64,000 bases of DNA, from the NCBI GenBank assembly GCA_963824385.1, contig CAWGPD010000003.1, positions 32,001 through 96,000 on the forward strand, read 5' to 3'. Below, piece after piece: positions 2,902-57,343 of this stretch. The notes under the pieces were generated by a model. The model searched no databases, was not told the origin of the DNA, and saw only the letters and a program-made list of their open reading frames with translations. Every line of letters starts with the position of its first letter. Within the stretch, counting starts at the first letter, position 1. The position numbers were made by a program, and so were the translations under genes. Origin of the DNA: an uncultured Nitrososphaerota archaeon (lineage in GTDB: Archaea; Thermoproteota; Nitrososphaeria; Nitrososphaerales; Nitrosopumilaceae).

Positions 2902-5022
2902 AAATAGAGCAGTTAGACATTCCTTCCTCTGCAATTGAATTTCTGCAAAAAAATGGATATGTAAATCTGTATCCTCCTCAAGAAAAAACAATCAAAGCTG
3001 GATTGCTTGAAAGAAAAAGTATCTTAGTCTCTGCTCCAACTGCAAGTGGTAAGACATTGCTTGCAATGCTTGCTATAATAAAACATCTTTCTGAAAAAAA
3101 AGGCAAGATTGTATATCTTAGTCCTCTAAAGGCACTAGCATCTGAAAAATTTAATGAATTTAAAAAACTTGAATCTGTTGACCTTGGAAAGGATTTAAAA
3201 ATTCAAATATCAACTGGGGATTTTGACATATCTGACAAAAGTCTTGGTCAAAATGACATTCTTGTGTTAACTAATGAAAAAATGGATTCTATCATAAGAC
3301 AAGGTGCAGAATGGATAGATGAAATAAGTCTTGTAATTGCTGATGAAGTTCATTTGTTGGGTGATGATGATAGAGGTCCCACCCTTGAAATTGTGCTTAC
3401 GAAACTAAAATTATTGCCACAAAAACCCCAGATACTGGCTCTTAGTGCTACTGTTACTAACGCTGACGAAATCTCTGACTGGTTAGAATGTACACTTGTA
3501 CATAGTGAATGGAGACCAGTTCCTTTGTCAGAAGGAGTGTATGATCAAGGTGTAGTAACCATGCAAGACAGAAAAAAATTTGAAATTGAAACAAGTATAA
3601 GAGGTCCACCAGTTGACTTGGGATTAGATTCGCTAAAGAATGGAGGTCAAGCCATTTTGTTTGCAGAAACAAGAACTCGTTCAGTATCGCTTGCTACAAA
3701 GGCATCAGAAGCAGTATACAGGACTCTAAACACTGATGAAAAAGAATCATTAGAAAAAATCTCACAAAAAATTCTAAATGATAATGAACAAACTGAACTT
3801 GTCAAGACCTTGGCAACTCTAGTTAAAAATGGAGTAGCATTTCACCATGCCGGTCTTAATCAGAACTGCAGAGATCTAATCGAGTCTGAATTTAGAAATA
3901 AAAGAATAAAAATTCTAGCATCCACTCCCACCTTGGCTGCAGGAGTGAATCTTCCTGCAAGAAGAGTAGTTGTTGCTAATGTGACTAGATTTGATGCAAA
4001 GTATGGGGCTAACAAACCAATTAGCATACTTGAATACAAGCAGCTATGTGGTCGTGCAGGTAGACCACAATATGATGAATATGGGGAGGCAATCATCGTT
4101 GCTAACTCAAATAGTGAAGAAATTTTTGATTATTACATAAATGGAATTCCGGAACCAATTTCTTCAAAGCTTACTGGAGACAAGGCATTAAGGATACATC
4201 TTCTTAGGCTTTGTATCTACCAGTCCTGGTATCAAAGGAGAGGATATAGTAGAATTTTTTTCAAAGACACTTTCAGGTTCTCAAGAACGAAAGACTACAA
4301 TAAAATTTCATGTTCAAATTACTCTGAGATATCTTGAATCTGAAGAACTTGTAAAACAAAAAGGAAACAGGTATATCGCAACAGAATTTGGTAAAAAAAC
4401 TTCTACATTGTATATTGATCCTCTAACTGCAGTTCTATTTAGAAAATCAATTGAAAAAATTTCAAAAAAAGAACATACGCTTGGTTTGTTACATATAATT
4501 ACTAGCTCTGAAGATTTTTTCCCAAAGTTTTCACTGAGAAATAAAGATTATGAACTTGTAGGTACTTTGATTGAAAATTATGCTGATCAATTAATTGAAA
4601 ATATTTCAGAATATGATTGTAATCGAAGTCTTCTTGCAATACATGCTTGGATTAATGAATCCAGTGAAATATTTCTCTCTGATAACTTTGGTATCGAATC
4701 TGGTGATATGCATAGAATATCTGAAAGTGCAGACTGGCTTGTTCATGCACTTTATGAGATTGCAAAACTAGAGAAAAAAGATGAAATCCTCGATGAAATT
4801 GATACTTTGAGGTCCAGAATTACATATGGAATCAAAAAAGAGCTTGTTGATTTGGTACGTGTAAAAGGAATTGGACGAGTTAGAGCCAGAATACTCTTCA
4901 AAAATGGCATAAAAACTACAGAGGATCTAAATGAAATCACTACTGAAAAACTTGCAAAATTAGACAAGATAGGGCCAATTATCGCAGAAAACATAAAGAC
5001 ACACCTGAAAAAGATAAGATAA
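2898..5022 (+). CDS. hel308: Hel308/Ski2-like DEAD/H helicase (1-nt insertion at ~4207, probable sequencing error)
   Basis: APTASGKT, DEVH, GRAGRP in the first ORF; C-terminal HhH 'KGIGRVRAR' in the +1 frame; restoring AGGCT 4206-4210 to AGCT joins the two ORFs. Confidence 0.9.
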
Positions 5023-6008
5023 TGCTGGATAGAACAATCGCAGGAATACTGATCTCAACAATAGCATTTGTTACTGTTTATGCAATTACTCCTGGTCTGA
5101 TTAATACTCTTACAAAGAGAAACATGGTTGTAAAAGATTATAATAAAGAGGTTGCAACAACGGTCGCTCGCCCTGGAGGACCTTCAATACTTGCAGGAAT
5201 TTTGGCTTCTGAATTTGTACTCTACACATTCTTTCCTTCTACAGCAATATTGGCAATTATAATTACAACTTCACTTGCTTTTCTTGTAGGTTTTGCCGAT
5301 GACAGAAAAGTCCTTAGTGGATGGTTCAAACCTTTAGCTCTTGCGGGAACTGCAATACCTATAATTTTACTTGGTGTATATTATCCACATCTTGCATTTC
5401 CATTGTTTGGTTCAGTGCATATACCCGAACTCTATTTAGCGTTGATAATTTTTATGATTTCTATAACAGGAAATGCAATAAACTCTATTGATGTGCTCAA
5501 TGGTGTTGCAAGTGGATTTATGACAATTGCAAGTTTTGCACTTACAATTTGTCTTGTCATTGTACATAATTATGATATTGCACTAGCAAGTTTACCTCTA
5601 GGATTTGTCTCTCTTGCATTTTACAAATATCATAAAGTTCCAAGTAGAATATTTCCTGGAGATTCTGGAGTTATAACTATGGGAGCAATGTTTGGTACAT
5701 TAGCTATTGTTGGTCATGTTGAAGTTATTGCAGCAGTTGCATTACTTCCTGCTGTGATAAACTCTTTTCTATTTCTCTCAAGTGTGAAAAGAGTAATTGA
5801 ACATAGGCAGATTAAAGCAAAGCCTGTAGTTCATACAGAAGACTTCAGACTAATGGCAAGTGATGATAAATCAGCACCAGTAACTCTTGTTAGATTGATT
5901 TTAGCAAATGGACCTATGACTGAAAAGCAAGTGGGATTTGTAATTTTTAAACTAGCCTTTTTCTCTGCAGCATTGGCAATCATTACAGCTTTTATGATGA
6001 GGGCCTAA
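5022..6008 (+). CDS. glycosyltransferase family 4 (UDP-GlcNAc:dolichol/polyprenol-phosphate GlcNAc-1-P transferase, AglH/GPT-like)
   Basis: multi-TM protein; GFADD, NAINSIDVLNG and IFPGDSG motifs of the MraY/WecA/GPT family. Confidence 0.88.
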   Translation: MLDRTIAGILISTIAFVTVYAITPGLINTLTKRNMVVKDYNKEVATTVARPGGPSILAGILASEFVLYTFFPSTAILAIIITTSLAFLVGFADDRKVLSGWFKPLALAGTAIPIILLGVYYPHLAFPLFGSVHIPELYLALIIFMISITGNAINSIDVLNGVASGFMTIASFALTICLVIVHNYDIALASLPLGFVSLAFYKYHKVPSRIFPGDSGVITMGAMFGTLAIVGHVEVIAAVALLPAVINSFLFLSSVKRVIEHRQIKAKPVVHTEDFRLMASDDKSAPVTLVRLILANGPMTEKQVGFVIFKLAFFSAALAIITAFMMRA

Positions 6009-6011
6009 AAT

Positions 6012-6245
6012 ATGAAAGCAAAACCTGTCTACATCTACATTTTGCTAATGTGGACACTGATTATTGCTGGAGGAGGATTGCTTGTCCTAATTGTAGAACA
6101 TATTTCAATACATGGATTTGGAGCGTTTGATCATATACTGGATTCAATTGTAAAAGCAGCTATTGCAATGATACTAGTGGTGCTTTGGGTTTTGTTAATG
6201 TCAAAAATAAAGAACTGGATTTTCCAAAAAGAAATGAGTCACTAG
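6012..6245 (+). CDS. small two-TM membrane protein
   Basis: 77 aa with two hydrophobic segments; 3 nt downstream of the GT4 gene. Confidence 0.7.
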
Positions 6246-6720
6246 CCTCTCTTCCCAGTTCTTCTTCTTCTTGTCATATTCTTCTCTTGAATACTTGACT
6301 TTTGCTGGAACTCCAACTACAACACAATTGGGTGGAACATCCTTTGTTACCACTGCACCCATTGCTACCACACTATTCTTACCTATTCTAACTCCTGCCT
6401 TAATTACTGCCTTGGAACCTATGACAGACTCCATCTTCTATGGTAACTCCTATCATCTTTTTACTGGCAGGATATGGATCATTGGTTAGTGCTGCAGCCG
6501 GACCAATGAAAACATTTTTTCCAATTATGGAAAGAGGTGGTATGTAAACAAGTCCCTCTATCATAGTATTTTCTCCTATCTTTACATTGTAATCTACATG
6601 TGCAAGAGAACCAATCTTGACATTATCCCCAATCTCTGCATTATCTCCTACATAAGCAAAATGCCATATCCTTACATTTTTCCCAAGTTTTGCTTTTTCA
6701 GAAATGAAATTTGTTACCAT
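6242..6720 (-). CDS. hexapeptide-repeat sugar N-acetyltransferase (WbpD/WlbB-like); frameshift at ~6428; the 3' end is 6242 or 6201
   Basis: left-handed beta-helix repeats, 'LTNDPYP' and 'VVVGVPAK'; restoring AGCT at 6426-6430 gives ...[13 protein letters not shown]. Confidence 0.85.
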
Positions 6721-6726
6721 TTTATA

Positions 6727-6996
6727 TCACAAGTGCCATGGAGAGCCTTTTGAAACTATCTTATCAGGAAGAGTATTTTTGAACTTGTTTAAGAATTCAA
6801 TATCTTGATTTTTGTCTCGCAGTTCATCAGGCAACATTATAGGAATCTCTTCTATTATTGGATAATATCTTGAGCACTTTGAACAAAATATTACGCCGTC
6901 AGAAATAATTTCGTCTTTGGAATTAAATTCTACAAGCTCAAGTGGAAAGTGTTTGTCTATTGGACACGCTAAAATCTCTATCAGTTTTCTGTTCAT
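6727..6996 (-). CDS. Trm112-like methyltransferase activator
   Basis: 'LACPIDK...CSKCSRYYPIIEEIPIML' Trm112 signature. Confidence 0.9.
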   Translation of the reverse strand: MNRKLIEILACPIDKHFPLELVEFNSKDEIISDGVIFCSKCSRYYPIIEEIPIMLPDELRDKNQDIEFLNKFKNTLPDKIVSKGSPWHL

Positions 6997-7928
6997 TTTA
7001 GGTCTAGATAGATTGGAGTTCCTTTTTGGCTAGATAAAAGTGCCGCTTCTGCAATTTTGGTGGTATTCAAAGCATCTTCTGCTCTTACTCTTATGGGTTC
7101 TTTTCCCTCTATTGCAGAAATGAAATTCTTTATCTCTAAAAGCAATGGCTCTTCCATATCCTTGCGAGGTATTTCAGCTCCTGAACTGGTTTCAATTTTT
7201 ACCTCTTGTGTAATAAAATCTGAAGAAATTATTGCATCTCCACATACAGCATTGAATTTTCTTACACGTATTGGAGTAATCCAGTTTGATGATATGATTG
7301 CAACTCTGTTATCTTTGAAGCCTAGCATAATTGTTGCAAAATCCTCATGTTCGTGTCTTATTTTTCCAGATCTTGCAAATACGACTTCTGGCACATCATC
7401 AAATAACCACATGGCGGTATCTATGTCATGAACTGAAGTATCGTAAATGATTCCTACATCTTTTATGTGATTGGGCATTCTGTTTTCTCTATGAAATTCA
7501 AGCATTATCAATTCGCCATACTTCTTTGTCTTGACATATTCTTTGACAAGTGAGACAGCAGGATTGAATCTCTCTATGTAGCCACTTGTAAGAACCACCT
7601 TATTTTTCTTGGCTAGTTTGAGTAACTCTTCACCTTCATGTGAGAGATAAGTCATAGGTTTTTCTACAAAGACATTTTTCTTTTGCTCCAAGAGTTTTTT
7701 TGCTATCTCAAAATGAGTTGAGGTAGGTGTGCAAACAAATGCTGCATCAAATTGCTCAGAATCCATAAGTGAATCTAGGGATGAATAATAATTTACAGAA
7801 TATTTTTTGCCAAATTCTTCTGCACGGGATGTATTCATGTCACATATTGCAGAAAGAACTCCAAAATGAGAAAGAATTCTGGCGTGATTTTTTCCAAAGC
7901 CGCCAGTACCTATCTGAACTATTTTCAT
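6993..7928 (-). CDS. Gfo/Idh/MocA oxidoreductase (WbpB-like)
   Basis: GTGGFG Rossmann motif, EKP, ERFNP, DTSVHDID. Confidence 0.9.
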   Translation of the reverse strand: MKIVQIGTGGFGKNHARILSHFGVLSAICDMNTSRAEEFGKKYSVNYYSSLDSLMDSEQFDAAFVCTPTSTHFEIAKKLLEQKKNVFVEKPMTYLSHEGEELLKLAKKNKVVLTSGYIERFNPAVSLVKEYVKTKKYGELIMLEFHRENRMPNHIKDVGIIYDTSVHDIDTAMWLFDDVPEVVFARSGKIRHEHEDFATIMLGFKDNRVAIISSNWITPIRVRKFNAVCGDAIISSDFITQEVKIETSSGAEIPRKDMEEPLLLEIKNFISAIEGKEPIRVRAEDALNTTKIAEAALLSSQKGTPIYLDLK

Positions 7929-7929
7929 C

Positions 7930-8847: not shown

Positions 8848-8883
8848 ATTGAAAAACCCAATCCGTCTATAATTAATCTATTT

Positions 8884-9480: not shown

Positions 9481-9544
9481 CTGGCTTCAGTATTTTCATG
9501 GCATATTTCAATCATTTAGAATTGTGAGAAAATTCTCAAGAATA

Positions 9545-9618
9545 TAGGGACGATGGGACTTGAACCCACGACATCCAGCGCCCGAGGCTGGCAGTCTACC
9601 AAGTTAACCTACGTCCCT
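9545..9618 (-). tRNA. tRNA-Pro(CGG)
   Basis: reverse complement folds as a cloverleaf; anticodon arm CCAGC-CTCGGGC-GCTGG; T-loop TTCAAGT. Confidence 0.93.
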
Positions 9619-9667
9619 GTAGACTCGCCAAAGTAATAGAATATTATTCTTTCAAAGAATGCTTTTT

Positions 9668-10510: not shown

Positions 10511-10641
10511 GTGAAGTTTTTGATTTAGAAGGTTAAATATCTTATGCTGTTATTTTGCATACAAATTTTGATTCACGCTAAACGTTAATAACCTCTCAAA
10601 AAAAGTTAATGCAAATCAGATGTAATATTCTGATTGAATAT

Positions 10642-17986: not shown

Positions 17987-18063
17987 AAAACCTCTCTTTT
18001 TGAAGTTACATTCTAAACGAAAATGACATTTTTCATATCATAAATTAATTTGCTAATTTTAAG

Positions 18064-18137
18064 CGGGTTCGCGGGGATTCGGACCCCGGACAGCCGGATT
18101 AAAAGTCCGGTACTCTACCTGGCTGAGCTACGAACCC
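18064..18137 (-). tRNA. tRNA-Lys(UUU)
   Basis: reverse complement GGGTTCGTAGCTCAGCCAGGTAGAG...; anticodon arm CCGGA-CTTTTAA-TCCGG. Confidence 0.95.
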
Positions 18138-18236
18138 ATGACAAAACGTCATAGTTGTGTATAATTTAGTCTTTTACAAAATTTTTTGAAGAAAAGAAAG
18201 ACTTTAAACTCATATTTTCTTCCACAATATTTTAAC

Positions 18237-22198: not shown

Positions 22199-23747
22199 AT
22201 GCATTCTGAAAAGATTAAGAATTTTTTACATAAAAGACGACAGGCAGAACAGAGTGGTGGAGAAGAAAGAGTTCAGGCTCAACATGATAAAGGCAAGCTA
22301 ACTGCAAGAGAACGAATTGACCTGCTTCTCGATGAAGGAAGTTTTCATGAAATCGATGCAATGACAACTCATCATTACTATGAATTTGATATGCAGGACA
22401 AAAAATTCTTTGGAGATGGAGTTGTTACAGGATATGGAACTATACACGGAAAACAAGTTTTTCTTTTTGCTTATGATTTTACAGTTCTTGGTGGAACACT
22501 TAGTGAGATGGGTGCCAAGAAAATTACAAAAATTATGGAGCATGCTACAAATGTTGGTTCTCCAATTATTGGAATAGCTGATTCAGGGGGAGCAAGAATT
22601 CAAGAAGGAATTCTAAGTCTTGATGGTTTTGCAAATATATTTTATCATAATCAACTTGCATCTGGAGTAGTTCCTCAAATTACCATTAGTGTGGGACCAT
22701 CCGCAGGAGGTGCAGTATATTCACCTGCAATGACAGATTTTGTAATAATGGCTGATAAGATTGCGACAATGTTTGTAACAGGTCCAGAGGTTGTCAAGAC
22801 AGTCCTTGGAGAAGATGTATCTTTTGATGAGCTTGGCGGTGCAATGTCACATGGAAAGAATAGTGGTGTTGCCCACTTTGTTGCAAAGAATGAATATCAG
22901 TGCATGGATATTGTCAAGACTCTCTTATCATATCTTCCTCAAAATAGCACAGAAGAACCACCAATTGTAGAAACTGGTGATGATCCAAACAGACTAGACA
23001 ATAATCTCATAAACATAATTCCAGAAAACCCTCTACAACCATATGATATGAAAGAAATCATTAGTTCTATAGTTGACAATCACATATTCTTTGAGATACA
23101 TGAATTATTTGCACCAAATGTCGTAATTGGATTTGCTAGACTACATGGAAGGACAATTGGAATTGTTGCAAACCAACCAATGGTACTTGCAGGTGCTTTG
23201 GATATTGACTCATCAAACAAGGCAGCAAGATTCATCCGATTCTGTGACTGCTATAGTATTCCAATTATTACTCTAGTAGATACTCCTGGGTATATGCCTG
23301 GGACACAACAGGAACATGCTGGAATCATCCGTCACGGAAGTAAACTCTTGTATGCATACTGTGAGGCTACAGTTCCAAAGATAACACTAATCATTGGAAA
23401 AGCCTACGGTGGAGCCTACATCGCAATGTCTAGCAAGAATTTAGGAACAGACATGAATTATGCTTGGCCAACTGCACAGATAGTCTGTACTAGGTTCTGA
23501 AGCAGCGGTACGGATAATGAACAGAAAAGAACTTGATGCTGCAAAAGATTCTGCTGCATTAAAAAAACAACTTGTAGATAATTTCACTGAAAAATTTGCA
23601 AACCCCTACGTAGCTGCATCTTATGGTACTATTGATTCAGTTATTGATCCTGCTGAAACCCGACCTGCACTAATACGAGCCTTGGATGCTTTAGCAAATA
23701 AAAGAGAGAGAAGAATTCCACGAAAGCATGGGAACATTAATCTTTAG
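22199..23747 (+). CDS. acetyl-/propionyl-CoA carboxylase carboxyltransferase subunit (3HP/4HB cycle); frameshift at ~23484
   Basis: DSGGARIQEG, GGAVYSPA, KAYGGAY, C-terminal RKHGNINL; restoring AGCT at 23482-23486 gives WPTAQIAVLGSEAAV. Confidence 0.93.
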
Positions 23748-29188: not shown

Positions 29189-30491
29189 ATGTCTACTATC
29201 GCACCGCAGTTTAGATTCAGTAGATTCATTGCATCTCTATTTGATTTAATATTTTGGGTACTTCTGATCTTCAGTCTAGTTGGATTGCCCATAGTCTTTG
29301 TTATACTGTTTTACATCAAGCTTCCAATAATCAACGGTCAACTCATGACCCCATATCTTTCAATTACCTGGATTGCTGACCCATCACGTACTCTTCCAAT
29401 TGTCAAAAATTTCATTCATACAACTATCTTCAGAGTGATGGTATTTCCCGGATTTGGATTTGCTGCTTTACTTGCAGCTGCAACAATATTTGTAGAAAGA
29501 AAGTTTCTTGCAAAAATACAGCTCAGAGTAGGTCCACTTTATTGTGGAAAAATAGAAGGAATTCTACAACTGATGGGTGATGGTTTTAAGCTAATGAGTA
29601 AAGAGATCATAATACCTGCAAAAGCAGACAAACCAATTTTCTGGATGGGTCCATTATTGTTTGTAGGTGCAGCAGGTGCCTTTGTTTCTCTGATTCCAGT
29701 TGCTCCTGGATGGGTAGTTGCAAATCCTTCCGTTGGTCTTTTAGCAGTATTTGCAATCATAGGTTTCTTTCCAATAATTGCTGTACTCACAGCATGGGCA
29801 GCAAATAGCAAATGGACATTCATTGGTGGTCTTAGAGCACTTCATCAAATGGTTGCTTTTGAAATTCCATTAATTTTGTCACTTCTTGGAGTAGTGATAC
29901 TCTCTGGAAGTCTAAATCTTTCGCAAATTGTTGAATCACAACAACACTTTTGGTGGATTACTTTTGTACCGATTGGCGCAATAGTCTTTTTCATTACAAT
30001 CTTTGCAGAACTTGAAAGAATTCCATTTGATCTTCCAGAAGCAGAAAGTGAAATTGTTGCAGGATGGTTAACAGAGTTCTCTGGAATGATGTATGGATTA
30101 ATTCAGCTTGGAACTTATCTAAAATTATATGCATTTGCCGGATTGTTTGTTGTATTATTCCTTGGTGGTTGGAACGGTCCTATGGTTTGGCCACCCTTCC
30201 CACAAGATATCATAACTAATGGAATTACAATTGGTCCTGTAACTGCTAAAATCCCTGGATTGCCGCTCTTTGATCAACAAATGCTTAATGGCACACTGTG
30301 GTTTGTGATAAAGACTGTAGGAGTTATACTCTTGATTCTACTACCTCGTGGAGTTTTCCCAAGAGTTAGAATGGATATAGCATTACACACTGGTTGGTAC
30401 AAACTAATCGGTCTTGCTTTCATTAACATCTTTATAGACTCTCGGATTGCTATACGCAGGTGTCTTGGGACCTGGAGGATTGTTACAATGA
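29189..30491 (+). CDS. nuoH: complex I subunit H (frameshift at ~30438 near the C-terminus)
   Basis: ERK...QLRVGP, PFDLPEAESE; restoring AGCT at 30436-30440 gives IFIALGLLYAGVLGPGGLLQ*, ending in an ATGA overlap with nuoI. Confidence 0.93.
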
Positions 30492-30986
30492 GTAATGTTA
30501 TCGGAATAATCCGCGCATTAAATTCCGGAGTTAAACATCTTGCAGTAAAGAGATTCACATTACGATATCCTGAGCAGAAATTAAAATTTGTAGGTGATGG
30601 ATTTCAATTCAATCCGGAGACCGGAGTGGGAATAGCTGGATTAAGAGGTCGACACATATTGTTCCATGAACATTGTACTGGTTGTCAGACTTTGTTCTGT
30701 AGCATGTGAGGGAATAGCAGAGGCCATAAGTATGGTCAAGATAGCTGAAACGTGGAAACATAACAAGAAAGCAATAATGCCACAGATTGATTATGGTAAA
30801 TGTGTATTCTGTGGACTATGCGTAGATGCTTGTCCGTTTTATGCACTATACATGACAAATGACTATGAGCTTTCTTCGTTTACCAAATCTGCTCTTATTT
30901 ACACCCCTGCTCAGCTTGCTATCAAACCAAATATTTCACAAGATGTTGAAATAAAAATAAGTGACAGGGGTGCTTCACATGGTTGA
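30488..30986 (+). CDS. nuoI: complex I subunit I (frameshift at ~30689)
   Basis: TLRYPEQK; restoring AGCT at 30687-30691 rebuilds CTGCQLCSVAC; second cluster CVFCGLCVDACP. Confidence 0.93.
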
Positions 30987-37990: not shown

Positions 37991-38628
37991 ATGAGTTCTA
38001 TTATTCAGAGAATTGACAAGATAATTGATGAACAGAGTTTGTTAAAGCACAAATTCTATGTCATGTGGAATGAAGGCAAATTATCAATGGAATCTCTTAG
38101 TGGCTATTCAAAGGAATACTTTCAATTAGTAAAAGCAGTTCCCTCATTTGTAGACAACGTTCTGGTGAAAAGCCCATCTGAAATTCAGAGTAAAATTGCT
38201 TCAAATAGAGATGAAGAATCTGAGCACATAGAACCATGGGTAAAATTTTCTAGTGCACTAGGCATATCACAAAATGAACTAAGAAATTATGCCGGTCTTG
38301 ATAAAACAAAACAAGCTATTTCAAATCTTTCATGTCTTATGAATTCCTTTGAGGGTGGAGCTGCCGCAATGTATGCTTTAGAGCAGGAAATTCCAAAAAT
38401 TAGTTTATCAAAGATAGATGGATTGAGAAAATTCTATGGTTTGTCAGAAGATGATGCAATAGAATATTTCAGACTTCACGCAGAAGCTGACATAAGACAC
38501 GCACTCTTTGGCGAAAAATCTTGGAAAAAACTTCTGCATCACAAGAGGATGATTTAGTAGAAACAGCCAACAAATCCTTAGCAGCTCAAAATCTATTGCT
38601 TGATAGCTGCTATGATGCATACTGTTAA
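37991..38628 (+). CDS. PqqC/TenA/CADD-like heme-oxygenase-fold protein (1-nt deletion at ~38503)
   Basis: HKFYVMWNEGKL, DEESEH, YALE, YFRLHAEADIRH; restoring AGCT extends the frame to ...AALWRKILE...CYDAYC*. Confidence 0.8.
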
Positions 38629-39619: not shown

Positions 39620-40228
39620 TTAGATTGACTTCATCTGTTTTTTAATTCTATTCAAAGTTTGTTCATCAAGAATTTTCTCAGCATGCAAAGCATTGGAAAT
39701 TGCAAGTATGTCTGTAATCTCATACATCTTTACTTTCTCTTTTTCCAAGTTTTCCCTTGCCCCTTCAAGCCTATTGACTATGACAAATGCAGAATCCACC
39801 ATTATTTTGGCATCTTTTAAGGCTCTAATGGCATTAAGTAATGAATGACCCGTCGTTCCAACATCATCTACTAGAACTACTTTTGATCCCTCTAGTATCT
39901 TTCCCTCTATGAGACTACCGGTACCATAGTCCTTTGGTTTTTGCCTGATGTAAATTAGAGGCTTTACAGTTTCTATCGCTAATGCAGATGCTATTACAAG
40001 CCCTGACGTTGGAACTGACGCTATGTAATCAAAATTGTCTAAACCTATTTTCTCTGAAATCAAGTTTTGAAGAGATTTTATCATCTTTCTAAATTGATGT
40101 GGAAAACTTGGTACTAGTCTAAGATCTATATAATATGCGCTTTCTTTTCCACTAGAAAGCTTGAAATTTCCAAATTTGATTGCACCACTTTCTTGTAAAA
40201 ATATCGCAAATTCTTTGACAAAATCCAC
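39620..40228 (-). CDS. pyrE: orotate phosphoribosyltransferase
   Basis: FKLSSGKESAYYIDLR, VLVDDVGTTG PRPP motif. Confidence 0.95.
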   Translation of the reverse strand: MDFVKEFAIFLQESGAIKFGNFKLSSGKESAYYIDLRLVPSFPHQFRKMIKSLQNLISEKIGLDNFDYIASVPTSGLVIASALAIETVKPLIYIRQKPKDYGTGSLIEGKILEGSKVVLVDDVGTTGHSLLNAIRALKDAKIMVDSAFVIVNRLEGARENLEKEKVKMYEITDILAISNALHAEKILDEQTLNRIKKQMKSI

Positions 40229-41366: not shown

Positions 41367-42438
41367 AAATGGAAAATGGTAAAGGCGCACAAAGAAATGC
41401 AAGTGCAATAACTAATGCAAACATTCTTTTTCTTTTTTTAGATAATGGCGAAATGTCATCTAATGGTTTTACATCTTGACTTCTCATACTTAACACCAAA
41501 ACAAATAATGCCATTATGTAATATCCTGTAGAAGCTAGAATTCCTATACTTGCATATGTTAGAATTCTATGCCATTTCACACCAAAAGTTGCTCTAGCTA
41601 CGTGACCACCATCAAGTTGCCATGCTGGCAAAAGATTAAGAAATGTTATGAGAAATCCAAACCAAGCCGCTAACAAAACTGGTGACATTACAAGTTCTTG
41701 ATTGGGAACATGTTTTCCAACAAGAGAAATTGTTGCATCCATTAGAATGCTAGAATGTAATTCCATGAGACCAGATTTTTCTAAAAGTTCGTGGGCTTGT
41801 GAACTTGGTACCATTGGAGATATGTATGCCCCATATGTGGAAACAATTATTGCTACAATAAGGCCTGCTATAGGACCTGAGATCCCGATATCAAAAAGTA
41901 TGTTTCTATTTGCAATTAACCCACGAGACATTATGAGAGCTCCAAAAGTTGGGATGAATCCAAATACTGGAATTCCTGGGATGAAATAAGGCCAGCTGAT
42001 CTTGAGTTTGTGTATCTTTGATGCAATCATGTGACCAAGTTCATGAATCCCAAGTATTCCCATTAAGGAGATGGTGTACAGAACAGCAATGTATAGTGGG
42101 TCATCTCCTTTCACAATCAAGTTTGTACTGATGGCTCGATAGTAGCCATCAATCATTACAGTTACTATAGTTGCGGCAAACAGTGCTCTTGGGATCCAAA
42201 ATCGTCGTGACTTTGGAGGTATAAATCTAGAAATTAGTAAAAATGTTTTCCCAAAATTTGATTCTAATCTAACTATCATGTTCTTTGATTCCATTTTTTG
42301 AACTAGTTGAGGAAATTTCTTAGTTACATTATTTCCAGAAATCTCAATTTGTAGTATAGTTGGACTTTGATTAAATCCAACTATAGTAAAATATGAGGAA
42401 ACATCAGATAGGACTTCATCAAGAGTTGATATGTTCAG
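41359..42438 (-). CDS. site-2 protease (M50) family zinc metalloprotease; probable CTG start at 42438
   Basis: HELGH, GP, NLLPAWQLDGGH; the frame stays open 48 codons upstream of the ATG at 42294. Confidence 0.9.
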   Translation of the reverse strand: MNISTLDEVLSDVSSYFTIVGFNQSPTILQIEISGNNVTKKFPQLVQKMESKNMIVRLESNFGKTFLLISRFIPPKSRRFWIPRALFAATIVTVMIDGYYRAISTNLIVKGDDPLYIAVLYTISLMGILGIHELGHMIASKIHKLKISWPYFIPGIPVFGFIPTFGALIMSRGLIANRNILFDIGISGPIAGLIVAIIVSTYGAYISPMVPSSQAHELLEKSGLMELHSSILMDATISLVGKHVPNQELVMSPVLLAAWFGFLITFLNLLPAWQLDGGHVARATFGVKWHRILTYASIGILASTGYYIMALFVLVLSMRSQDVKPLDDISPLSKKRKRMFALVIALAFLCAPLPFSIFT

Positions 42439-43017: not shown

Positions 43018-43054
43018 ATTAAAATAAATAAGTCAGAAAAAGACTCTATAGCTT

Positions 43055-44113: not shown

Positions 44114-45893
44114 TTTCTATAGTAAAACTTTCCAGATTGTTTTTGTTCTCTGTCCAGTCGACTCTCCAATTTGTTTACTCTAGGTCTCATACTTGTTTCA
44201 TCTCGTCTGTATGTCATTTCAAGAGATTTCAAGAATTCGTTCATACCCTCAACTTTAGGTTTTGGAGTTGTTGCATGACCTTCTCTTCCAGGAGTTCCAT
44301 GAAATATTACAATTGAATCAGAAATCAAATCCATAAGTTGAATATCATGGTCAACTATTATTGCAGATTTTCCATACGATCTTACATATCTTTGAATGAG
44401 TTTTGCTACAGTATTCTATCTTCAACATCCAAGAATGCAGAAGGTTCGTCAAGTGCATAAATGTCAACTTTTTGCAAAAGACATGCTCCAATTGCTACTT
44501 TTTGAAGTTCACCACCTGATAAATTCTTGACAGATTTATTGTATAATTTTTTTATCTTCATTGGATTGACTATGATTTCCTCTTCCGGAGTTTCTTCTAT
44601 TGTTCCACCATGTGCTTTTTCAAGAAGCGTAATTACCTCAACATCATAATCATTTGTTAGATATTGCGGTTTGTAGGCAATCTTTACTTTGCTTTCTATA
44701 TTTCCAGAGTCAGGCTTTTCAACACCTGCAATCATCTTCATCATTGTTGTTTTTCCTAATGCATTTGCACCTACGACGCCTAGAACTTCGCTTTTCCTTA
44801 CTCTGCCTGCTTCAATTGAAAGTGAAAAATTTGCAAATTTTTTCTCTAATTTTGGATATGTCATGATATTTTCTATAGTAACAAATTCATCTATGGTGTT
44901 AACTGCATCAAATTTGAATGCGATATCTCTGAACCTGACGTTTTCATTAGGAAGATATCCATCTAGGAATACATTGATTCCAACCTTGGTTGAGAGCATG
45001 CTTGCAACTATGCCATATGCTGCAGGCTCACCATAAAGAATCTCGATAAAATCACTAAGATAGTCTAGTAATGTTAAATCATGTTCTACTACCATCACAC
45101 TCTTTCCAATTTTTGCAAGATCTTGAATCACTCTTGCAACTCCGATTCTCTGAAAGACATCGTTATACGATGAAGGCTCGTCAAAGAAATAAAAATCTGA
45201 TTCTCTTGACGCAGCAACGGCCACGGCTATTCTTTGTAATTCTCCTCCACTCAGGTCTGCCAGTGTATTTTCTAAAGAATTTTGTAATCCAAGTTGTTGA
45301 ATCAATTCTTTTGCCTTTCCACGTTCATCATATTTTTCAAAAAGTTCTTTTGCAGTACCATCAAATACTTTTGCTAGGTTGTACACTTGCTGAGGTTTTA
45401 TGGATGCCTTTAATTCGTTATTTGCAATTTTTTCAAAATGCGGTTTAAGTTCAGTACCTTGAAAATGTTTTAAAATTTGACTCCATTCCGGAGGTGAAGC
45501 AAAATCTCCTAAGTTTGGTCTTAGATTTCCAGATAATATGCCTACAACTGTACTCTTGCCAATGCCGTTTCTTCCTAGTAGACCCATGACTTGACCTTTC
45601 TTCAAACTTGGAATTTTGTAGAGTCTAAATGCATTTTGTCCATATTGGTGAATCTTATCTGATTTTAATTCCTCTGCTAAATTGACAATTGTTATTGCAT
45701 CAAATGGACAAACCTTGACACAAATTCCACATCCGTTGCAAATGTTTTCATCGATTTGAGCCTTGGCGGTTTCTTCATTTAGAACTATACAATCTGATCC
45801 CATCTTGTTTACTGGACAATATTTGATGCATTCCAGCCCACATTTTTTTGTCTGACAACTTTCTTTATCTAAAACTGCTACTCGATGGGTCAT
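44110..45893 (-). CDS. ABCE1/Rli1 ribosome recycling ATPase (1-nt deletion at ~44411)
   Basis: N-terminal 2x[4Fe-4S] Cys motifs; two ABC domains with LSGGELQ; restoring AGCT gives EDRIAVAKLIQR...VDHDIQLMDLISD. Confidence 0.95.
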
Positions 45894-49682: not shown

Positions 49683-50344
49683 AGATATTTCTTGATACTG
49701 CAAATATTTCTGCAATAAAGATGTATAATGATATGGGACTTGTAGATGGAATTACTACAAACCCCTCTCTTATGGCAAAGGAAGGCGGAGATCCTCAAAA
49801 AGTCATGGAGGAGATTGTTCGAATTATCAAAGGTGATGTAAGCTTGGAAGTGTTAAGTATGGAAACTAACGGAATGCTAGAAGAAGGCAGAAGACTAAGA
49901 AAATATGGAAACAATGTGGTTGTAAAATGTCCCATGACCCCTGAAGGTCTTAAGGCTTGCAAGACATTGACATCAGAAGGCATTCCAGTAAATGTCACAC
50001 TTTGCTTTTCAGTAAATCAAGCAATACTAGCAGTGAAAGCCGGTGCAAAATATGTTAGTCCATTTATTGGAAGACTGGATGACAATGGCCAAGATGGAAT
50101 GAATCTAATCAAAGAAATGCACCAAGTATTTCAAAATTACAAATTTAGCACACAAATTCTTGTTGCAAGTATTAGACATCCTATGCATGTAGTGGAAGCC
50201 GCAAAAATTGGAGCAGATGTAGTTACTTTACCACCTGATGTATTGGGTAAGATGTTAAAACATCCACTAACAGATGTCGGTCTGAAAAACTTTTTGTCAG
50301 ATTGGGAAAAACTCAAAAAAGATAATCCAAACATTAAGATCTAA
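49679..50344 (+). CDS. tal: transaldolase (TalC/FSA family)
   Basis: FLDTA, GITTNPSL, VVKCP, SPFIGR. Confidence 0.93.
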   Translation: MKIFLDTANISAIKMYNDMGLVDGITTNPSLMAKEGGDPQKVMEEIVRIIKGDVSLEVLSMETNGMLEEGRRLRKYGNNVVVKCPMTPEGLKACKTLTSEGIPVNVTLCFSVNQAILAVKAGAKYVSPFIGRLDDNGQDGMNLIKEMHQVFQNYKFSTQILVASIRHPMHVVEAAKIGADVVTLPPDVLGKMLKHPLTDVGLKNFLSDWEKLKKDNPNIKI

Positions 50345-50366
50345 ATTTTTTTCAATAAAATTTTTG

Positions 50367-50822: not shown

Positions 50823-50826
50823 CTCT

Positions 50827-52393
50827 TCAGCTATTTCCCAAGACATTCAAAACTCTTTTTGGAATATCGCTTAATCTACTAACAGCAAGAGTTCGCTCAT
50901 AGCCTAATCTTCTAAGATTATTTGCAATCAATATGGCATCTTCTGTATCAGGTCCAAAGCCTATGGCGACCATCTTTATGCCAATAGATTTGAAATCTCT
51001 CATTAAATGACGAACTGCGTCAGGATCTGACGGTTCTCCATCTGTCAATGTTAAAAATATGTCTGGTTTTTTTGAACGAAGAGACGGCAATAACATGTTG
51101 TAAACTTCAGCCAGTGGTGTACTTCCATTTGCTTTTATTTGTGCAAGTCTCTTGGCAGAAATATTATTCCATTTTAAATTCTCTGGCTTTATTAGCCAAC
51201 ATACAACATGTTTTTGTTCTGTGTTAAACGCATAGACCGAAAATTTTACTTTTAAATATTCTAAAACTTCACAAAGGGCAAGTGTACGCTTTCTTGTATT
51301 GTATCTCCTGATTTGCAATACTTGAAGAGTGATCTAAAAGTATGATAATCCTGGTCTTGATTGCAATTTTTCTATCTGATATGAATGGTTTATGGTCCTC
51401 CATGTACGACTCTTCATCAAATTCATCTCCTGAAAAGACATGCTCTTCCTTCCATCCAGATTTCCATTCTTTGAATTTTGCTTTTAGGTGATTTATTAGA
51501 TCTATATCAATAATCTTTGTTTCGTCCACATTTGTTGCAGTGGGAATGTTGATTCCAATTGTTTCACTACTCAAACCTTTATTCTCTGTTCTTTTTGCTT
51601 CTTCAAGCAAAACTTTGAATTCTTCAAAAACTTCTTTGCCTTCAGAAATTTTCTGGGGATCTAATTCTCCAAAATCATCTTCACGATATTTTGCAATCTT
51701 GTTTAGAGTCTTAACAAATTCCTCTTCTGAAAGTGCCATGCCAGAACTGATTTTAGGAATTGATAGTGGGATAGTTAAAAGTGGGTCAATCTCTAAGATC
51801 TTGATTATTTCAGGTACTCTTTTTTCAAGCCAGTCTGTACCATATTTTTTTTCAATTGCCTCTTTTACTATCTCTGAGGCAAGATTGATTGCCTTTTTGA
51901 CCTTCTCAAATGCACTAAGCTGCAATTCTCCCTTGATATCCCCTAGAAGAAAGTACTGAGCAAAACCTTCCACTATTCGAGTATTTCCGAATAACGTGTT
52001 CAATAATGGTCTGTATAGCCAAGCAACTCCATATCTGAAAATAATTTCACTGTCCATTCCCTGCCAAACAGTTCTTGCAATAGTCTCAATTCTTCTTGTT
52101 TCAAGAGTATTGAGGATAAATCCAAAAGCGTGATCATTACTAAGAATTTTACTTGAATATCTGATTCTCATTGCTTCATACCACAAGGCAGTTCTGAATT
52201 GGCGATATTTTTGAAAATCAGTTCCTTGATATTTTTCTAATGGAAACATTATGACTTTATTTTCTTTTAGTTTAGTTTGTACTTCTTTTTGATCCGATAT
52301 GCTAACTATAATGGATTCTTTTCCAGACCATCTTCTAACAAGAAATGTAGATATTTCAATTAATGTGTCATTTCTAAGATGTAATGATTGCAT
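50827..52393 (-). CDS. vWA-domain protein (NorD/CbbO-like partner of the AAA ATPase); frameshift at ~51288
   Basis: MIDAS elements DHSSS, GSTP and TDGEP split across two frames; restoring AGCT gives YKKATLALCE; N-terminal 'NTLETRRIE'. Confidence 0.85.
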
Positions 52394-53190
52394 TAACTAC
52401 CAAACATCGATGTTATGATGTCATTTACTTTTTGGAATTCGACGCTACCCCATTGCAAGTATATGTTGGCAAATACTACCTCTGCCGCTTGCCTTGTTTT
52501 CATACCTGAATCAAGAATCTTTGCAAATGCTATTGTTTCACGCAAGCTTGGAGAATAGTATAACTCTTCTACTGCAGCTGCTTGTCGTAAAATATTTGCC
52601 AATTTTATTCCTTGCAAGATCTCCTTTTCATGAGATGATGATGAATACTGCTTGACTATTCGAAATTCAATATCCTCTGGTGGATAATCTAGTCTAAGTC
52701 TTATGGGGAATCTGCTTAGTAATTGTGGTGGAAGCTCTTTTGTACCAACATGTGATAACGGATTAATTGTAGCAACAACAAACCATCCTTTAGTAGCTTT
52801 TATCAATTCTCCACCCGATTCTTTTAGAACAATCTGTCTTCTATCATCAAGTGCTTCATCAAGGCGAAGAAGGACGTCTGCCTCTGCAGAATTTATCTCA
52901 TCAAGATAAAGCATGTTTCCCTCTCTCATGGATTTGACTAGGATTCCTTGCTCAAATCCAATTGCACCGTTTTCCATTGTTTTTGCTCCTACCAGATGAC
53001 TCTCACGTGTTCTTAAACTAAAATTGATTGACTCTAGCTTTATTCCTTTTCTTGTGGCAAATTCTCTTACTAGTGTAGTCTTACCTGTACCCTTGGGACC
53101 TATTATGAGAACAAATAGATCAGCGGCAAATGCTTTGTCTAGAACTTCAAATGAATTATTCCAATCAATATACAATGATTCTGTAAGCAT
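52393..53190 (-). CDS. MoxR-family AAA+ ATPase (CbbQ/NirQ/NorQ-like)
   Basis: GPKGTGKT, YLDEIN, ATINP, LLSRF, SLRE. Confidence 0.9.
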   Translation of the reverse strand: MLTESLYIDWNNSFEVLDKAFAADLFVLIIGPKGTGKTTLVREFATRKGIKLESINFSLRTRESHLVGAKTMENGAIGFEQGILVKSMREGNMLYLDEINSAEADVLLRLDEALDDRRQIVLKESGGELIKATKGWFVVATINPLSHVGTKELPPQLLSRFPIRLRLDYPPEDIEFRIVKQYSSSSHEKEILQGIKLANILRQAAAVEELYYSPSLRETIAFAKILDSGMKTRQAAEVVFANIYLQWGSVEFQKVNDIITSMFGS

Positions 53191-53327
53191 GTTTGAACAA
53201 AGTTCTTTCCTTAATTTAAAAATGTCTCATTGTTTAACACTAGGTATAGCAGAATTAATCTTCAAAGAATGTGAAAAGCAGTTCTATTCCAATTAATATT
53301 CCTTGATCTAAATATCTTTGAATTTTT

Positions 53328-54780
53328 TTATACGCCTATTTTTGCGTATGATTCATCCAAAATATGGTGTAAGGTTTTATGCCAAGCATCAAAACCATCT
53401 GGTTTCTTGGGGAAGTTGTAATAATGTTCTGTTAATGCTTTATTTTGTTGTGCAGTGAATCTAAGTCCATCTGCAAGAGTTTTGTTGAGTGCACCTCTTA
53501 TCATCATGCCTAAGCTTTCCAACAGTTCCAAAGTCTGGGTGCTCTCCTTTGCTAATTGCTTCCACGTCTAATTTTGATAAAAAGTGCTTCATTCCATAGT
53601 TTATCTGTTCATTTGTTAGAGTCTGGAGTAAACGTCTGAAAATCTCAAGACCTGCTGTTTTGTATCCATAATCATTAATAAAATCAATATTGTATTGCCA
53701 AAGACCTGCTTCGCTAACATCTCCTGCTTCAATTGCATTTACTGCATTTTTACCTAAGATAGTTGCTGCAACTATCGCTGGACCAATTCCTCCAGCATCA
53801 AGTGGTTTTGGCATCCATGCAGAATCACCAACAAGCATGTATCCATTTGTAACCAAACAATCATTTTGTCTTCTCACAGAAACTTGCCAATTACCTGTTA
53901 CATTATTGGAATCCATTGAATCGTCTGATAATTTTGGATTTATTATGGCCTTGTTCATCTTGACATAATCATTAATTAATTTAGTGACGTCATCATGTGT
54001 TCCTAATCTTTGGTTTCTTTTTATCAACTCTTTTTGTTGAACGCCCAATCCAATGTTTACCTTGTTTTTTCCTTTTGGAAATACCCATCCATATCCTCCA
54101 GGAGCTATATCTTGATCAAGATGAATTATACAATAATCTGGATCAAACTCTTTCTTGTCATCTACACCTTGATCAAATTTCATAATATGTCGTCCTGTTG
54201 ATTCTAAATCATCACGGTCAATTTTTCGCTCTATCTTGTTGCTTATGGTAAGACCGTTTCTTAACATCGAAGTAACACCAGTGGCATCAACTACAATTTT
54301 TGCAGTTTTTTTGAATGGCTCTTTTGTAAGTAGATTTGTTCCTTCTACTCCAACAACTGCACCGTTTTCATATGTTAAACCCCTTAATGCAACAGAATAT
54401 TGGATGTTAATTCCTGCTTTTTTTGCATCACGAAGCTGACGTTGGGGAAGCTGTTGTCTGTTTAACATGTATCCATCGCCATCAAAAGGAATTGATGTCT
54501 CTCTATCAGGGGAAAATGCCATCACTCCCTTTACGGGATGCTCAATCTCTGGGTTACCCCATGCAATCTTGATTCTCTCAGTCATGTAATCTACAGTATT
54601 TTTTCCAACGGCATCACCACAAACCCATCCATTGAGTGTCTTCATGCCAATGGTAATCTCGGGATTTCTATCTATTACAAGAATTGATAATTTTTGTTTT
54701 GAATAATACGCAGCAGATTGAGCAGCAATCATTCCTGCAAGACCTCCACCTGCTACAATGATATCATAATCTGTTTTCAC
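53328..54780 (-). CDS. geranylgeranyl reductase family (DGGGPL reductase-like); frameshift at ~53513
   Basis: GGGLAG, CG, PGGYGWVFPKG, GDSA...PLDAGGI; the C-terminal part continues in the 53328-53531 frame. Confidence 0.88.
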
Positions 54781-54842
54781 AGCGAAAAAACAGGATCCAC
54801 TCTATTTAAAAGAACCGTATGGAAATAGATCAAAAGGATTTT

Positions 54843-54912
54843 GGGTCGGTTCGTCGCGGCTTCTTCACAGCAGATGCTCAGACTGGAGCGGCAAAAATAT
54901 TACCTCATTCCC
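54843..54912 (-). ncRNA. candidate C/D box-type sRNA
   Basis: minus strand reads GGG-A-ATGAGGT..CTGA..GTGAAGA..CCGA-CCC; TTTAATAA TATA box at 54942-54935; T-rich tract downstream; GC-rich island in an AT-rich intergenic gap. Confidence 0.6.
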
Positions 54913-54964
54913 TTTTCTCTAGGGTTGACAAATATTATTAAACTATGCTAGGCGCTGATTTTAT

Positions 54965-55387
54965 TCAAACTGTGAGTAACTCTATGTATTTTTTTGAAAT
55001 TTCATCTTTTTTGTAGATTGGCATTTTTACCTTGATTTTTATTGCATTATTTTGTTGTAAACTAATTTCTTTATTTACAAGTTCATTCTTGCCTATCCTT
55101 AAGAAAAGTGTAGTATCTTCAAAATACAAATCTATGTTTTCTATTAGATCTTTCATCTGAGTCTTTGATATTTTGGACGCTAATTTTTTAACAAATTCTT
55201 CTCCACGTTTTTTTGATAGTGTTATCTTGGCAAGCAATATTGGATTTCCATAATGACCAAGAGTTTGTTCTATGGTAAATTCATCTTCTTTTATTTGAAA
55301 CAAGTCAAAGATGGGCTCAAAGATTTTTTTATTATCCTCTGTTGCATGTAAGATTAATTCAGCTTCTACTTCGAACTGATGTGTCAT
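54965..55387 (-). CDS. archaeal RNA-binding protein (DUF54/COG1325-like)
   Basis: HATED, GHYGNPI, FLRIGK motifs. Confidence 0.8.
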   Translation of the reverse strand: MTHQFEVEAELILHATEDNKKIFEPIFDLFQIKEDEFTIEQTLGHYGNPILLAKITLSKKRGEEFVKKLASKISKTQMKDLIENIDLYFEDTTLFLRIGKNELVNKEISLQQNNAIKIKVKMPIYKKDEISKKYIELLTV

Positions 55388-55421
55388 GTTATGTAATACC
55401 TGAAGAATAGGCTAATATCTA

Positions 55422-56036
55422 TTAGGCTTGTAACAGGGCAATCTCGCCCTCTGCAGTCCTGATGAGCTTTGCCTTTTCAATTCCTACGTGTCTTACGTGA
55501 ACTATCTTCTTGACAGCTGCCATGATATCAGAATTAATCTTTCCAAATACTGTAGCCTGGATGAACTGATCTATTGACATTTCTGGTATAGTCTTTGTCA
55601 TTACTTCCTGTGCCACCATTCTGATTGCATGCTTTCTTGACGTGTTCAACTTCTTCTGGGTCAAGGCAACTATCTTTATTCTAAAAATGTAACCATCCTT
55701 TGTCTTAAAATCTGCAATAAAACTAATCAATGAGGAACCGCGTCTTACTAAACTTCTAAGAAATTCCTTTGCATACTCAAATCTCTTGAAAATTGTAGTT
55801 GCTTTTTCACCATCTATTTTGTCAATCTGGAAATACAATTTGAACTGGTGTTGGGAAGGATCTCCTTTTAGTATATCGTGTAATGTGCATTCTATTACTC
55901 TGCCAACTGCACCCTTTTCATCAGTAATTGGAATGTAAGCAATTGGTTTTTTGTCAAACGAAGCAGGAAGTAATACTGTTACCCACTTTTTCTCTCTCCA
56001 CTTGTCTTTTACTCTTGATGTCTTTTGACGAGCCAA
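55422..56036 (-). CDS. rps3ae: 30S ribosomal protein S3Ae (eS1)
   Basis: KDKWREKKW, GRVIE, LRSLVRRGSS. Confidence 0.95.
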   Translation of the reverse strand: MARQKTSRVKDKWREKKWVTVLLPASFDKKPIAYIPITDEKGAVGRVIECTLHDILKGDPSQHQFKLYFQIDKIDGEKATTIFKRFEYAKEFLRSLVRRGSSLISFIADFKTKDGYIFRIKIVALTQKKLNTSRKHAIRMVAQEVMTKTIPEMSIDQFIQATVFGKINSDIMAAVKKIVHVRHVGIEKAKLIRTAEGEIALLQA

Positions 56037-56079
56037 CTATGATGAACTTCTGAGGCCAAAATATAAGTTGTACGACATT

Positions 56080-57343
56080 TTAGATTAGATTAGAGCCTAC
56101 GTATTTTTCTAATACCTTTGGAACTGTAATATGTCCATCTTTTGTCTGGAAATTTTCTATTATTGCAACCATAGTTCGAGTGGTTGCTACCAGTGTGCTA
56201 TTCAAGGAATGGAGATATTGTGGTTGTTCATCTGTTCTATCTCTAAATCTTATTTTTAATCTTCTTGCTTGAAAATCAAGACAATTTGAACAAGATACAA
56301 TTTCTCTATAGCTCTTCTGTCCTGCCATCCATGCTTCCAAGTCATATGTCTTGGCAGAGATCTTGCCCAAATCTCCACTTGATAATAACATGATTCTGTA
56401 CGGGATGCCAATTTTTTGATAAAATTCTTCTGCTATTGCAAGCATTTTTTCATGTTCCTTCCATGAATCCTCAGGTCTTGTAAAGACAAACTGTTCTACT
56501 TTTTCAAATTGATGTACTCGAAATATTCCCTTTTGGTCTCTACCATGAGCTCCTGCTTCTTTTCTAAAACATGTACTTACTCCTGCATATCTTAGCGGTA
56601 ATTTTTTACCATCAATAATCTCATCTGAATGCATTGATGCTACTGCATGCTCACTTGTTCCAATGAGGTAAAGATCTTCAGACTCTATCTTGTAAATCAC
56701 ATCTTCAAAATCTTGGGCAATTATAGCCCCTTCCATTGCATTTCTATTTATCAAAAATGGCGTTTGGATGGGTGTGTAACTTTTCTCAGTCAAAAAATCA
56801 AGTGCATATTGCAGTAACGCTTGATTTAACCTAACAAGTTGATTTTTGAGAAAGTAAAATCTTGCTCCTGAGACCTTGGCGGCTCTTTCCAAATCCACAA
56901 GGTCAAGATTCTGTGTCAAATCGATATGGTCTTTTATATCAAAATCAAAAGTAGGTATAGTACCCCATTTTTTTATCTCCTTGTTTGCAATGTCATCTTT
57001 TCCAATAGGAACTGATTCGTGGACCATATTGGGTAGTGTTAAAGAAAGTTTTGTGAAATTATCTTCTACCTTTATCTGAGTCTCTTCTAATCTACGGAGA
57101 TCCTCCGAAACTGTTTGCATTTGCCCAATGAGGACAGATGCATCTTCATTTGATTTTTTTTTCCTTGAAATTTCTAATGATACCTCGTTTCTTTTTTTCC
57201 TCAATTCATCAGTTTTTATAATTAGTTCTCTTCTTTCCTTGTCTAATGATATTAATTCATCAAGAGGAAATTTGACAGACTCTTGCTTCCAACATGGATT
57301 TTATTTTCTCTGGATTCTCTCGAAGAAGTTTTGGGTCAAGCAT
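56080..57343 (-). CDS. serS: seryl-tRNA synthetase (frameshift at ~57279)
   Basis: GTSE, FRKEAG...GIFRVHQFEK, EIVSCSNC; true N-terminus MLDPKLLRENPEKI from ATG 57343, joined by restoring AGCT. Confidence 0.95.

Follow-up and report, generated by a model that had tools for sequence, protein, structure and literature searches.

Frameshifts at AGCT in the window

The stretch of DNA analysed here, referred to below as the window, comprises 64,000 nucleotides (G000:C3:32001-96000) of an archaeal genome assembly, G000, which amounts to 1.68 Mb in 5 contigs and is 86% complete. Since homologues of one G000 protein carry the name Nitrosotalea at 85-95% identity, the genome is treated here as that of a Nitrosotalea, taken to be an ammonia-oxidising archaeon; the metagenomes richest in its DNA are from soil or of unspecified type. 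Ten genes of the window are broken by a single-base insertion or deletion (indel), and a first-pass annotation of the sequence had placed all ten on a corrupted AGCT and suggested DNA methylation as the cause. The ten spellings that it reported are all present in the sequence, and one-base changes give full-length open reading frames (ORFs). The window was aligned over its full length to five genomes of the same genus and over 26.5-38.5 kb to six more, and its segment 38001-58000 was compared with contigs of the same organism from the public runs X1, X2, X4 and X6 (three studies). Half of the ten sites are spanned by the contig check; the others lie below 38 kb, outside its range.

Below 38 kb, the helicase gene hel308 (plus strand, from 2898), whose product matches Pfam DEAD/Helicase_dom4_arc, reads AGGCT with one extra base at 4206-4210. 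The insertion is absent from 4/4 relatives, three of which spell AGCT, and repair extends the ORF from 479 to 707 aa. In a hexapeptide-repeat transferase gene on the minus strand, AGACT at 6426-6430 has one extra base that is absent from 5/5 relatives, none of which spells AGCT, and the ORF grows from 106 to 172 aa. The acyl-CoA carboxyltransferase gene (plus strand) has AGTCT with one extra base at 23482-23486, absent from 3/3 relatives with AGCT in two, and repair takes the ORF from 441 to 523 aa. Both nuo genes affected are on the plus strand and read AGACT with one extra base. In nuoH (30436-30440), AGCT is found in 9/9 relatives and the one-base repair gives a protein of 433 aa that terminates at its own stop. 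In nuoI (30687-30691), the extra base lies within the first 4Fe-4S motif and is absent from 9/9 relatives, seven of which have AGCT; as the first-pass annotation had it, the one-base repair brings back the CxxCxxCxxxC motif.

Within the range of the contig check, two genes have lost a base. The PqqC/TenA-like gene (plus strand) reads ACT at 38503-38505, and the missing base is present in X1, X2, X4, X6 and 4/4 relatives, giving a repaired protein of 260 aa. The gene for ABCE1/RLI (minus strand) reads AGT at 44410-44412, with the base present in all four runs and 5/5 relatives and an ORF of 594 instead of 495 aa after repair. The other three genes, all on the minus strand, have gained one. At 51286-51290 a gene that the first-pass annotation had labelled 'vWA' reads ACGCT; the extra base is absent from X1, X2 and X4 (X6 is without cover), 5/5 relatives have AGCT, and the repaired protein has 521 aa. 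The gene of the geranylgeranyl reductase family reads AAGCT at 53512-53516, where an extra A that abuts AGCT is absent from X1, X2, X4, X6 and 5/5 relatives, and its ORF is extended from 439 to 483 aa. In serS, AGACT at 57277-57281 carries one extra base that is absent from all four runs, AGCT is found in 4/4 relatives, and repair extends the ORF from 374 to 421 aa.

All ten indels are specific to G000, and every covering relative (from 3/3 up to 9/9) lacks them. AGCT is spelled by at least two relatives at eight of the ten sites. At the other two, 6426 and 53512, the relatives have diverged; AGCT is nevertheless seen at 53512 in the same-organism contigs, and at 6426 its assignment depends on gap placement. 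None of the ten sites touches a homopolymer run longer than 2, in agreement with the first-pass annotation. Nine of its ten gene names are backed by Pfam at E<=1e-5, and at this threshold the 'vWA' gene (51286) has no match, which leaves that name unconfirmed. Comparison of the window with the complete relative G014 gave 12 coding frameshift clusters, which are the ten sites and two poorly aligned stretches, so that no clean coding frameshift of the window was overlooked.

The list of ten coding indels stands, and it had missed one intergenic site and four substitution events in AGCT. The intergenic site, AGACT with one extra base at 18199-18203, lies ∼60 nt upstream of a tRNA-Lys gene (18063-18137); AGCT is found in 5/5 relatives, and the site is outside the contig check. 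The other indels relative to these genomes fall at gene ends or between genes, as judged from the ORF list. At 6244, the window reads AGCCT between genes where 5/5 relatives are one base shorter (mostly AGCTT or similar); the stretch is variable and outside the contig check, and this could possibly be a twelfth site. An indel beside AGCT at 43046 is probably real because the same-organism contigs do not contradict it.

In the contig check, 87 of the 104 aligned contig records from X1, X2, X4 and X6 are 99+% alike; X14-X21, whose word shares are small, were excluded, and 29 less-supported rows were left out of the difference list. Adapter ends in X2 and X4 look like those of Tn5, which would fit amplified short-read libraries; the library type is absent from the record. 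The indels shared by the contigs against the assembly number exactly five, are the five predicted sites, and each restores AGCT. X1, X2 and X4 correct all five sites and X6 corrects 4/4 (51287 is uncovered), and a sixth indel row, at 53191, comes from a single minor contig of X1 only. The indels at these five sites are assembly errors, and those at the remaining five are likely to be so.

A further seven substituted letters, forming six events, are common to X1, X2 and X4; four of the events turn the assembly into AGCT, one into GATC and one into neither. The four are CGCT at 39977-39980 and AACT at 52562-52565, both AGCT in X1, X2, X4 and X6, together with a two-base substitution (AGTG) at 50032-50035 and AGCC at 50038-50041, both AGCT in X1, X2 and X4 with X6 uncovered. 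The GATC event is AATC at 42200-42203 (GATC in X1, X2 and X4; X6 without cover), and the last difference, at 52624, is a C>T change three bases beyond a GATC. Nine of the 11 difference events are on or abut AGCT (P ∼4e-15 for a six-base target in 20 kb), showing that their placement at AGCT is not due to chance, and one of 11 is at GATC. In these 20 kb, 9 of the 54 true AGCT sites are wrong in the assembly (17%, 95% confidence interval 8-29%) compared with 1 of 65 GATC sites (Fisher P 0.005); the first-pass annotation had noted that the error is partial and many AGCT remain intact. No error was found in the same 20 kb at the commoner palindromes TGCA (136 sites), CATG (95) and AATT (254).

Motif bias across the genome

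We compared G000 with G014 over 159 non-overlapping alignments out of 546, each 500 nt or longer and no less than 78% identical, which together cover 916 of 1,677 kb. The 728 non-triplet gap clusters comprise 204 that interrupt an ORF of G000 where the enclosing ORF of G014 is intact, 25 of the reverse kind, 53 spanned by an ORF in both genomes and 446 in neither. Single-base events account for 172 of the 204 G000-breaking clusters (144 insertions and 28 deletions). When repaired, 80 of the 144 insertions become AGCT (null 5.4%), and 98 of the 144 lie in or against AGCT (null 7.3%, P ∼1e-75); this is the genome-wide indel enrichment that the first-pass annotation had proposed to look for. Among the 46 insertions that do not involve AGCT, 17 are at GATC (null 9.8%, P ∼1e-6). 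In the last 29 insertions no 4-mer is enriched and no third motif was found. The deletions fit AGCT in 22 of 28 cases (null 32%). Thus, the rule that every frameshift falls on AGCT holds for the coding sites of the window and not for the whole genome, where 120 of the 172 single-base coding frameshifts, or about two thirds, are compatible with AGCT. Errors are also attracted, less strongly, by a second motif, GATC, which corresponds to the Dam-family gene described below.

The commonest misspelling is AGACT/AGTCT, with the extra base between G and C, which makes up 80 of the 218 single-base events inside G014 ORFs; the two orientations split 47 to 33. Flanks with C before and a pyrimidine after appear to be preferred by AGACT-type events (C_T, 17 observed versus 7.4 expected; C_C, 11 versus 3.8), while A_C is seen 0 times versus 5.4 expected (84 events, no formal test). 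Relative to G014, 200 of 907 well-aligned genes (∼22%) contain one or more indels with a net length of one or two bases, an upper figure that includes some real differences. Observed to expected ratios of AGCT are 1.05 in the window and 1.01 in the genome, and the ratio against G014 is 0.97. AGCT is not depleted, and composition reveals neither the loss of ∼1 in 6 AGCT nor restriction avoidance. The most under-represented 4-mers of G000 are CTTA/TAAG (0.67), GATC (0.73), GGCC (0.76) and GTAC (0.77).

Several other candidates were set aside. The substitution spectrum relative to G014 was dropped, as 82% identity is too diverged to part errors from evolution. The 25 clusters of the reverse class were not retained as a control, as at least 4 of their 18 single-base events look like mislabelled AGCT errors of G000. 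Enrichment of GTCG/CGAC and of AACT/AGAT was gone after AGCT-linked events were removed, so that these are by-products, and GAAC was not enriched after GATC events were removed. The same context with the same extra base (AGTCT) is found at G000:C2:877, where C2 begins, and at C4:698318, close to where C4 ends; the two contig ends seem to overlap or to be duplicated, with the error repeated.

In five fragmented relatives, comparison with G014 over 271 kb of coding sequence gave 5 frameshift clusters, and AGCT was hit by none of them, as opposed to the 12 clusters in 58 kb of the G000 window. In the four-contig relative G015 (loci L007 and L179), 3/3 coding frameshifts in 33 kb touch AGCT, which suggests that the same artefact is present in a second assembly. 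The remaining loci (0.4-18 kb per genome) have at most one event each, in no case at AGCT, and offer little power.

Two DNA methyltransferase genes

The first-pass annotation had placed the methyltransferase outside the window. We searched G000 for PF01555, PF00145, PF02086, PF02384, PF07669 and dndC and found two DNA methyltransferase genes, both of which are outside it. The first, at G000:C4:401980-402828, is an open frame for a beta-class N4/N6 protein of 283 aa (hereafter the C4 enzyme), with PF01555 over residues 27-260 (145.6 bits), SPPY at residue 33 and DPFVGSG (DPFxGxG) at 226. The SPPY motif is typical of enzymes that make N4-methylcytosine (m4C). Its neighbours are dehydroquinate synthase II, a 67-aa ORF without a family, and Alba. 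The dehydroquinate synthase II gene (L011:57-895; G000:C4 ∼400.6-401.4 kb) is itself split by two extra bases (AGAGAGCT) abutting AGCT. The C4 enzyme looks like an orphan methylase, judging from its surroundings: no recognisable restriction gene adjoins it, though a genome-wide search for an AGCT endonuclease was not made.

The C4 enzyme is conserved in the genus. A PF01555 gene is present in 40 of 41 genus genomes, well over the 75% that defines a persistent methylase, and in 32 of them as a single copy; of the loci retrieved with the C4 protein 38 of 39 are 76-96% identical. The C4 enzyme shares 89% identity with a protein named N. okcheonensis, the species whose strain is the Nitrosotalea CS considered below. 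In the wider family, 12 of 27 genera contain a match to the C4 enzyme, with 43-55% identity in several genera other than its own, and some PF01555 gene is found in 78 of 81 genomes. G014 has two extra PF01555 genes 11 kb apart (G014:C1 ∼1,911-1,924 kb), one of which is a paralogue 47% identical to the C4 enzyme; the pair is possibly an acquired restriction-modification island. Searches of PDB, PADLOC and NCBIfam name the enzyme class only, and no motif, for the C4 enzyme, and no enzyme of known specificity was found among its longer homologues, its 50% representatives and its cluster names. A second PF01555 match of G000, at C2:191.7 kb, fits an RMKL-like family best and is likely an RNA methyltransferase; it is also the sole PF02384 match.

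The second DNA methyltransferase gene encodes a Dam-family enzyme (TIGR00571 205.7 bits, cut-off 114.85) at G000:C3:101675-102422 (L209:1347-2214), 5.7 kb past the window. PF02086 has a match in 35 of the 41 genomes of the genus, and the Dam gene is split in G000 alone, by one extra base at AGCT; the 34 other matching genomes have no internal stop. It lies directly downstream of an amoC-like gene, which has no NCBIfam match. Directly after dam, a 179-aa ORF (L209:2279-2818) has a PADLOC match to AbiTii (E 2e-12).

The first-pass annotation had left open whether AGCT carries m4C or 5-methylcytosine (m5C). Since no gene for a C5 methyltransferase (PF00145, 0 matches in the 86%-complete G000) was found and the candidate has an SPPY motif, m4C is favoured over m5C at AGCT.

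Origin of the errors and their implications

We consider it very probable that the errors arose because native DNA with m4C at AGCT and N6-methyladenine (m6A) at GATC was read on a nanopore platform, with recurrent miscalls that ended as consensus errors. The conserved C4 enzyme, as an orphan N4-cytosine methyltransferase, would methylate AGCT, and the Dam-family enzyme would methylate GATC. Because AGCT is palindromic, the mark would sit on both strands; reads of both directions would then be disturbed at one place, and majority polishing would be unable to repair it. The basecaller would miscall native DNA recurrently, leaving ∼1 in 6 AGCT wrong in the consensus. The five long contigs and the error pattern fit such an assembly.

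Both parts of this scheme have precedents. The thaumarchaeal AGCT methylation to which the first-pass annotation refers is in print (PMC6329791, PMC10609329). Single-molecule real-time (SMRT) data on a Nitrosarchaeum genome, reported in PMC6329791, showed 96% of AGCT as m4C and 98% of GATC as m6A, with two matching methyltransferases, and in a marine study AGCT was modified at 82-91% in two thaumarchaeal genomes (bioRxiv 10.1101/2021.05.08.442635). A survey of persistent orphan methylases (Anton and Roberts 2023, PMC10609329) gives GATC in 27 of 29 Nitrososphaerota and m4C at AGCT through group HG11 (14/14 Nitrosopumilales) or HG19 (8/8 Nitrososphaerales). In the same survey 'Nitrosotalea species CS' appears under both HG19 (AGCT, m4C) and HG3 (GATC, m6A), without methylome data, so that its AGCT specificity in the HG19 table is a prediction by homology. 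The orphan HG19/HG11 enzymes M.TarMY3I, M.NspBD3I and M.Nca01I, together with Dam-like HG3, recognise the same two motifs as those found here (PMC10609329, PMC11033074, PMC6329791). Like these systems, G000 has a conserved beta-class SPPY enzyme and a Dam-family enzyme with no recognised adjoining restriction gene, and the C4 enzyme likely belongs to HG19. A term search of the supplements of PMC6329791 yielded no BD3 gene sequence. The known systems differ in that their motifs came from SMRT data, whereas those of G000 are read from assembly errors.

That base modifications cause motif-bound nanopore errors, which survive polishing and reveal the motif, has been described for bacteria (PMC10687267, PMC11610603), and modification-mediated systematic errors in nanopore-only assemblies are also the subject of PMC11610573. 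G000 likewise shows errors that recur at one motif, outlast consensus polishing, reveal the motif and can be mended with the help of relatives or unmodified DNA. The published cases concern other motifs in bacterial isolates, with substitutions (C>T, G>A) predominating, and AGCT is absent from PMC10687267. In contrast, single-base insertions (AGACT/AGTCT) in G000 are at least as common as substitutions and break genes in an archaeal species-representative genome. No report of an AGCT indel footprint or of a Nitrosotalea methylome was found in the literature searched, which did not extend to subscription papers.

Could the basecaller or polisher simply be weak in the sequence context of AGCT, independent of any modification? 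The flank preferences of AGACT-type events could reflect k-mer modelling. However, the top two of 136 motifs are the two predicted for the two methyltransferases of the genome and there is no third, which is the weightiest argument for methylation over plain basecaller weakness; TGCA, CATG and AATT are more frequent yet error-free in the contig check; and modification-driven motif errors are documented to be lost on amplification (PMC10687267). We regard a plain context weakness as improbable. Slightly more improbable still is a mark other than plain m4C, such as m5C, a phosphorothioate or a bulkier group, made by another gene. The error rate is high and rich in indels, the genome is incomplete, and a weak AGCT modification signal apart from methylations has been noted in Poseidoniia (bioRxiv 10.1101/2021.05.08.442635). 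Yet no PF00145, dndC or Eco57I-type gene was found in G000, its sole PF02384 match being the likely RNA methyltransferase, and SMRT in related thaumarchaea calls AGCT as m4C.

Genuine mutations of the source strain, such as might arise by mutagenic repair at AGCT, or programmed frameshifts are the least credible of the explanations and very improbable. Should the source sample be another than X1 or X2, the contig check would be a comparison with a very close strain. Even so, four runs from three studies and all relatives agree against G000, the substitutions strike the same motif, and the ∼22% of alignable genes that are broken (200/907) include serS, ABCE1, nuoH/I and the carboxyltransferase, genes that no living cell would survive losing.

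We would like to point out that several observations weigh against methylation by these two enzymes as the source of the errors. The evidence for methylation and for the nanopore platform comes from assembled sequence, and X1 and X2 possibly stem from the very sample behind G000, in which case they are not independent of it. Among the insertions, 29 of 144 touch neither AGCT nor GATC, and indels make up at least half of the AGCT errors in G000, as opposed to the mainly substitutions of published cases. In L269, a named record from a much noisier assembly, 4.8 kb contain 11 frameshifts, of which six lie in the methyltransferase gene and a single one is at AGCT; noisy assemblies therefore need not show the AGCT bias. 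The link from gene to motif is indirect: G014 holds the second paralogue, and Table S3 of PMC10609329 gives one HG19 member for Nitrosotalea sp. CS with no locus tags. In 15 of the 27 genera of the family the C4 enzyme has no match at E<=1e-25, and most of these have a different PF01555 gene; the C4 enzyme is probably not an orthologue of the HG11 enzyme of Nitrosopumilales, and the distribution in the family fits two different groups of AGCT methylases, as set out in PMC10609329. Finally, as G000 is 86% complete, further modifying genes may be absent from the assembly.

For users of the genome the finding is mostly a quality warning. About 200 of the 907 alignable genes would be mistaken for pseudogenes or for genes of truncated proteins, which probably lowers the completeness score of 86%, and the gene for Dam, too, seems broken. 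Both the artefact class and the AGCT methylation system are already published, and AGCT methylation has been predicted for the genus. The role of the persistent AGCT and GATC marks in ammonia-oxidising archaea is an open question according to PMC10609329 and is not answered by our finding.

It is conceivable, at somewhat less than even chance, that long-read-only archaeal assemblies carry a methylome that is readable from their errors, such that specificities of orphan methylases in uncultured lineages could be assigned at database scale. If so, comparison with short-read contigs or relatives would recover, without raw signal, precisely the motifs concerned (in G000, AGCT followed by GATC and no other), and species-representative genomes of ammonia oxidisers would hold hundreds of false pseudogenes of one predictable spelling; the 3/3 AGCT-linked frameshifts over 33 kb of G015 hint that the footprint exceeds one assembly. 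For Nitrosotalea, where AGCT and GATC methylation has previously been a prediction from homology only, as presented in PMC10609329, the errors of G000 provide indirect support. They would constitute the first methylation evidence for the genus and tie its genus-wide 283-aa enzyme to AGCT.

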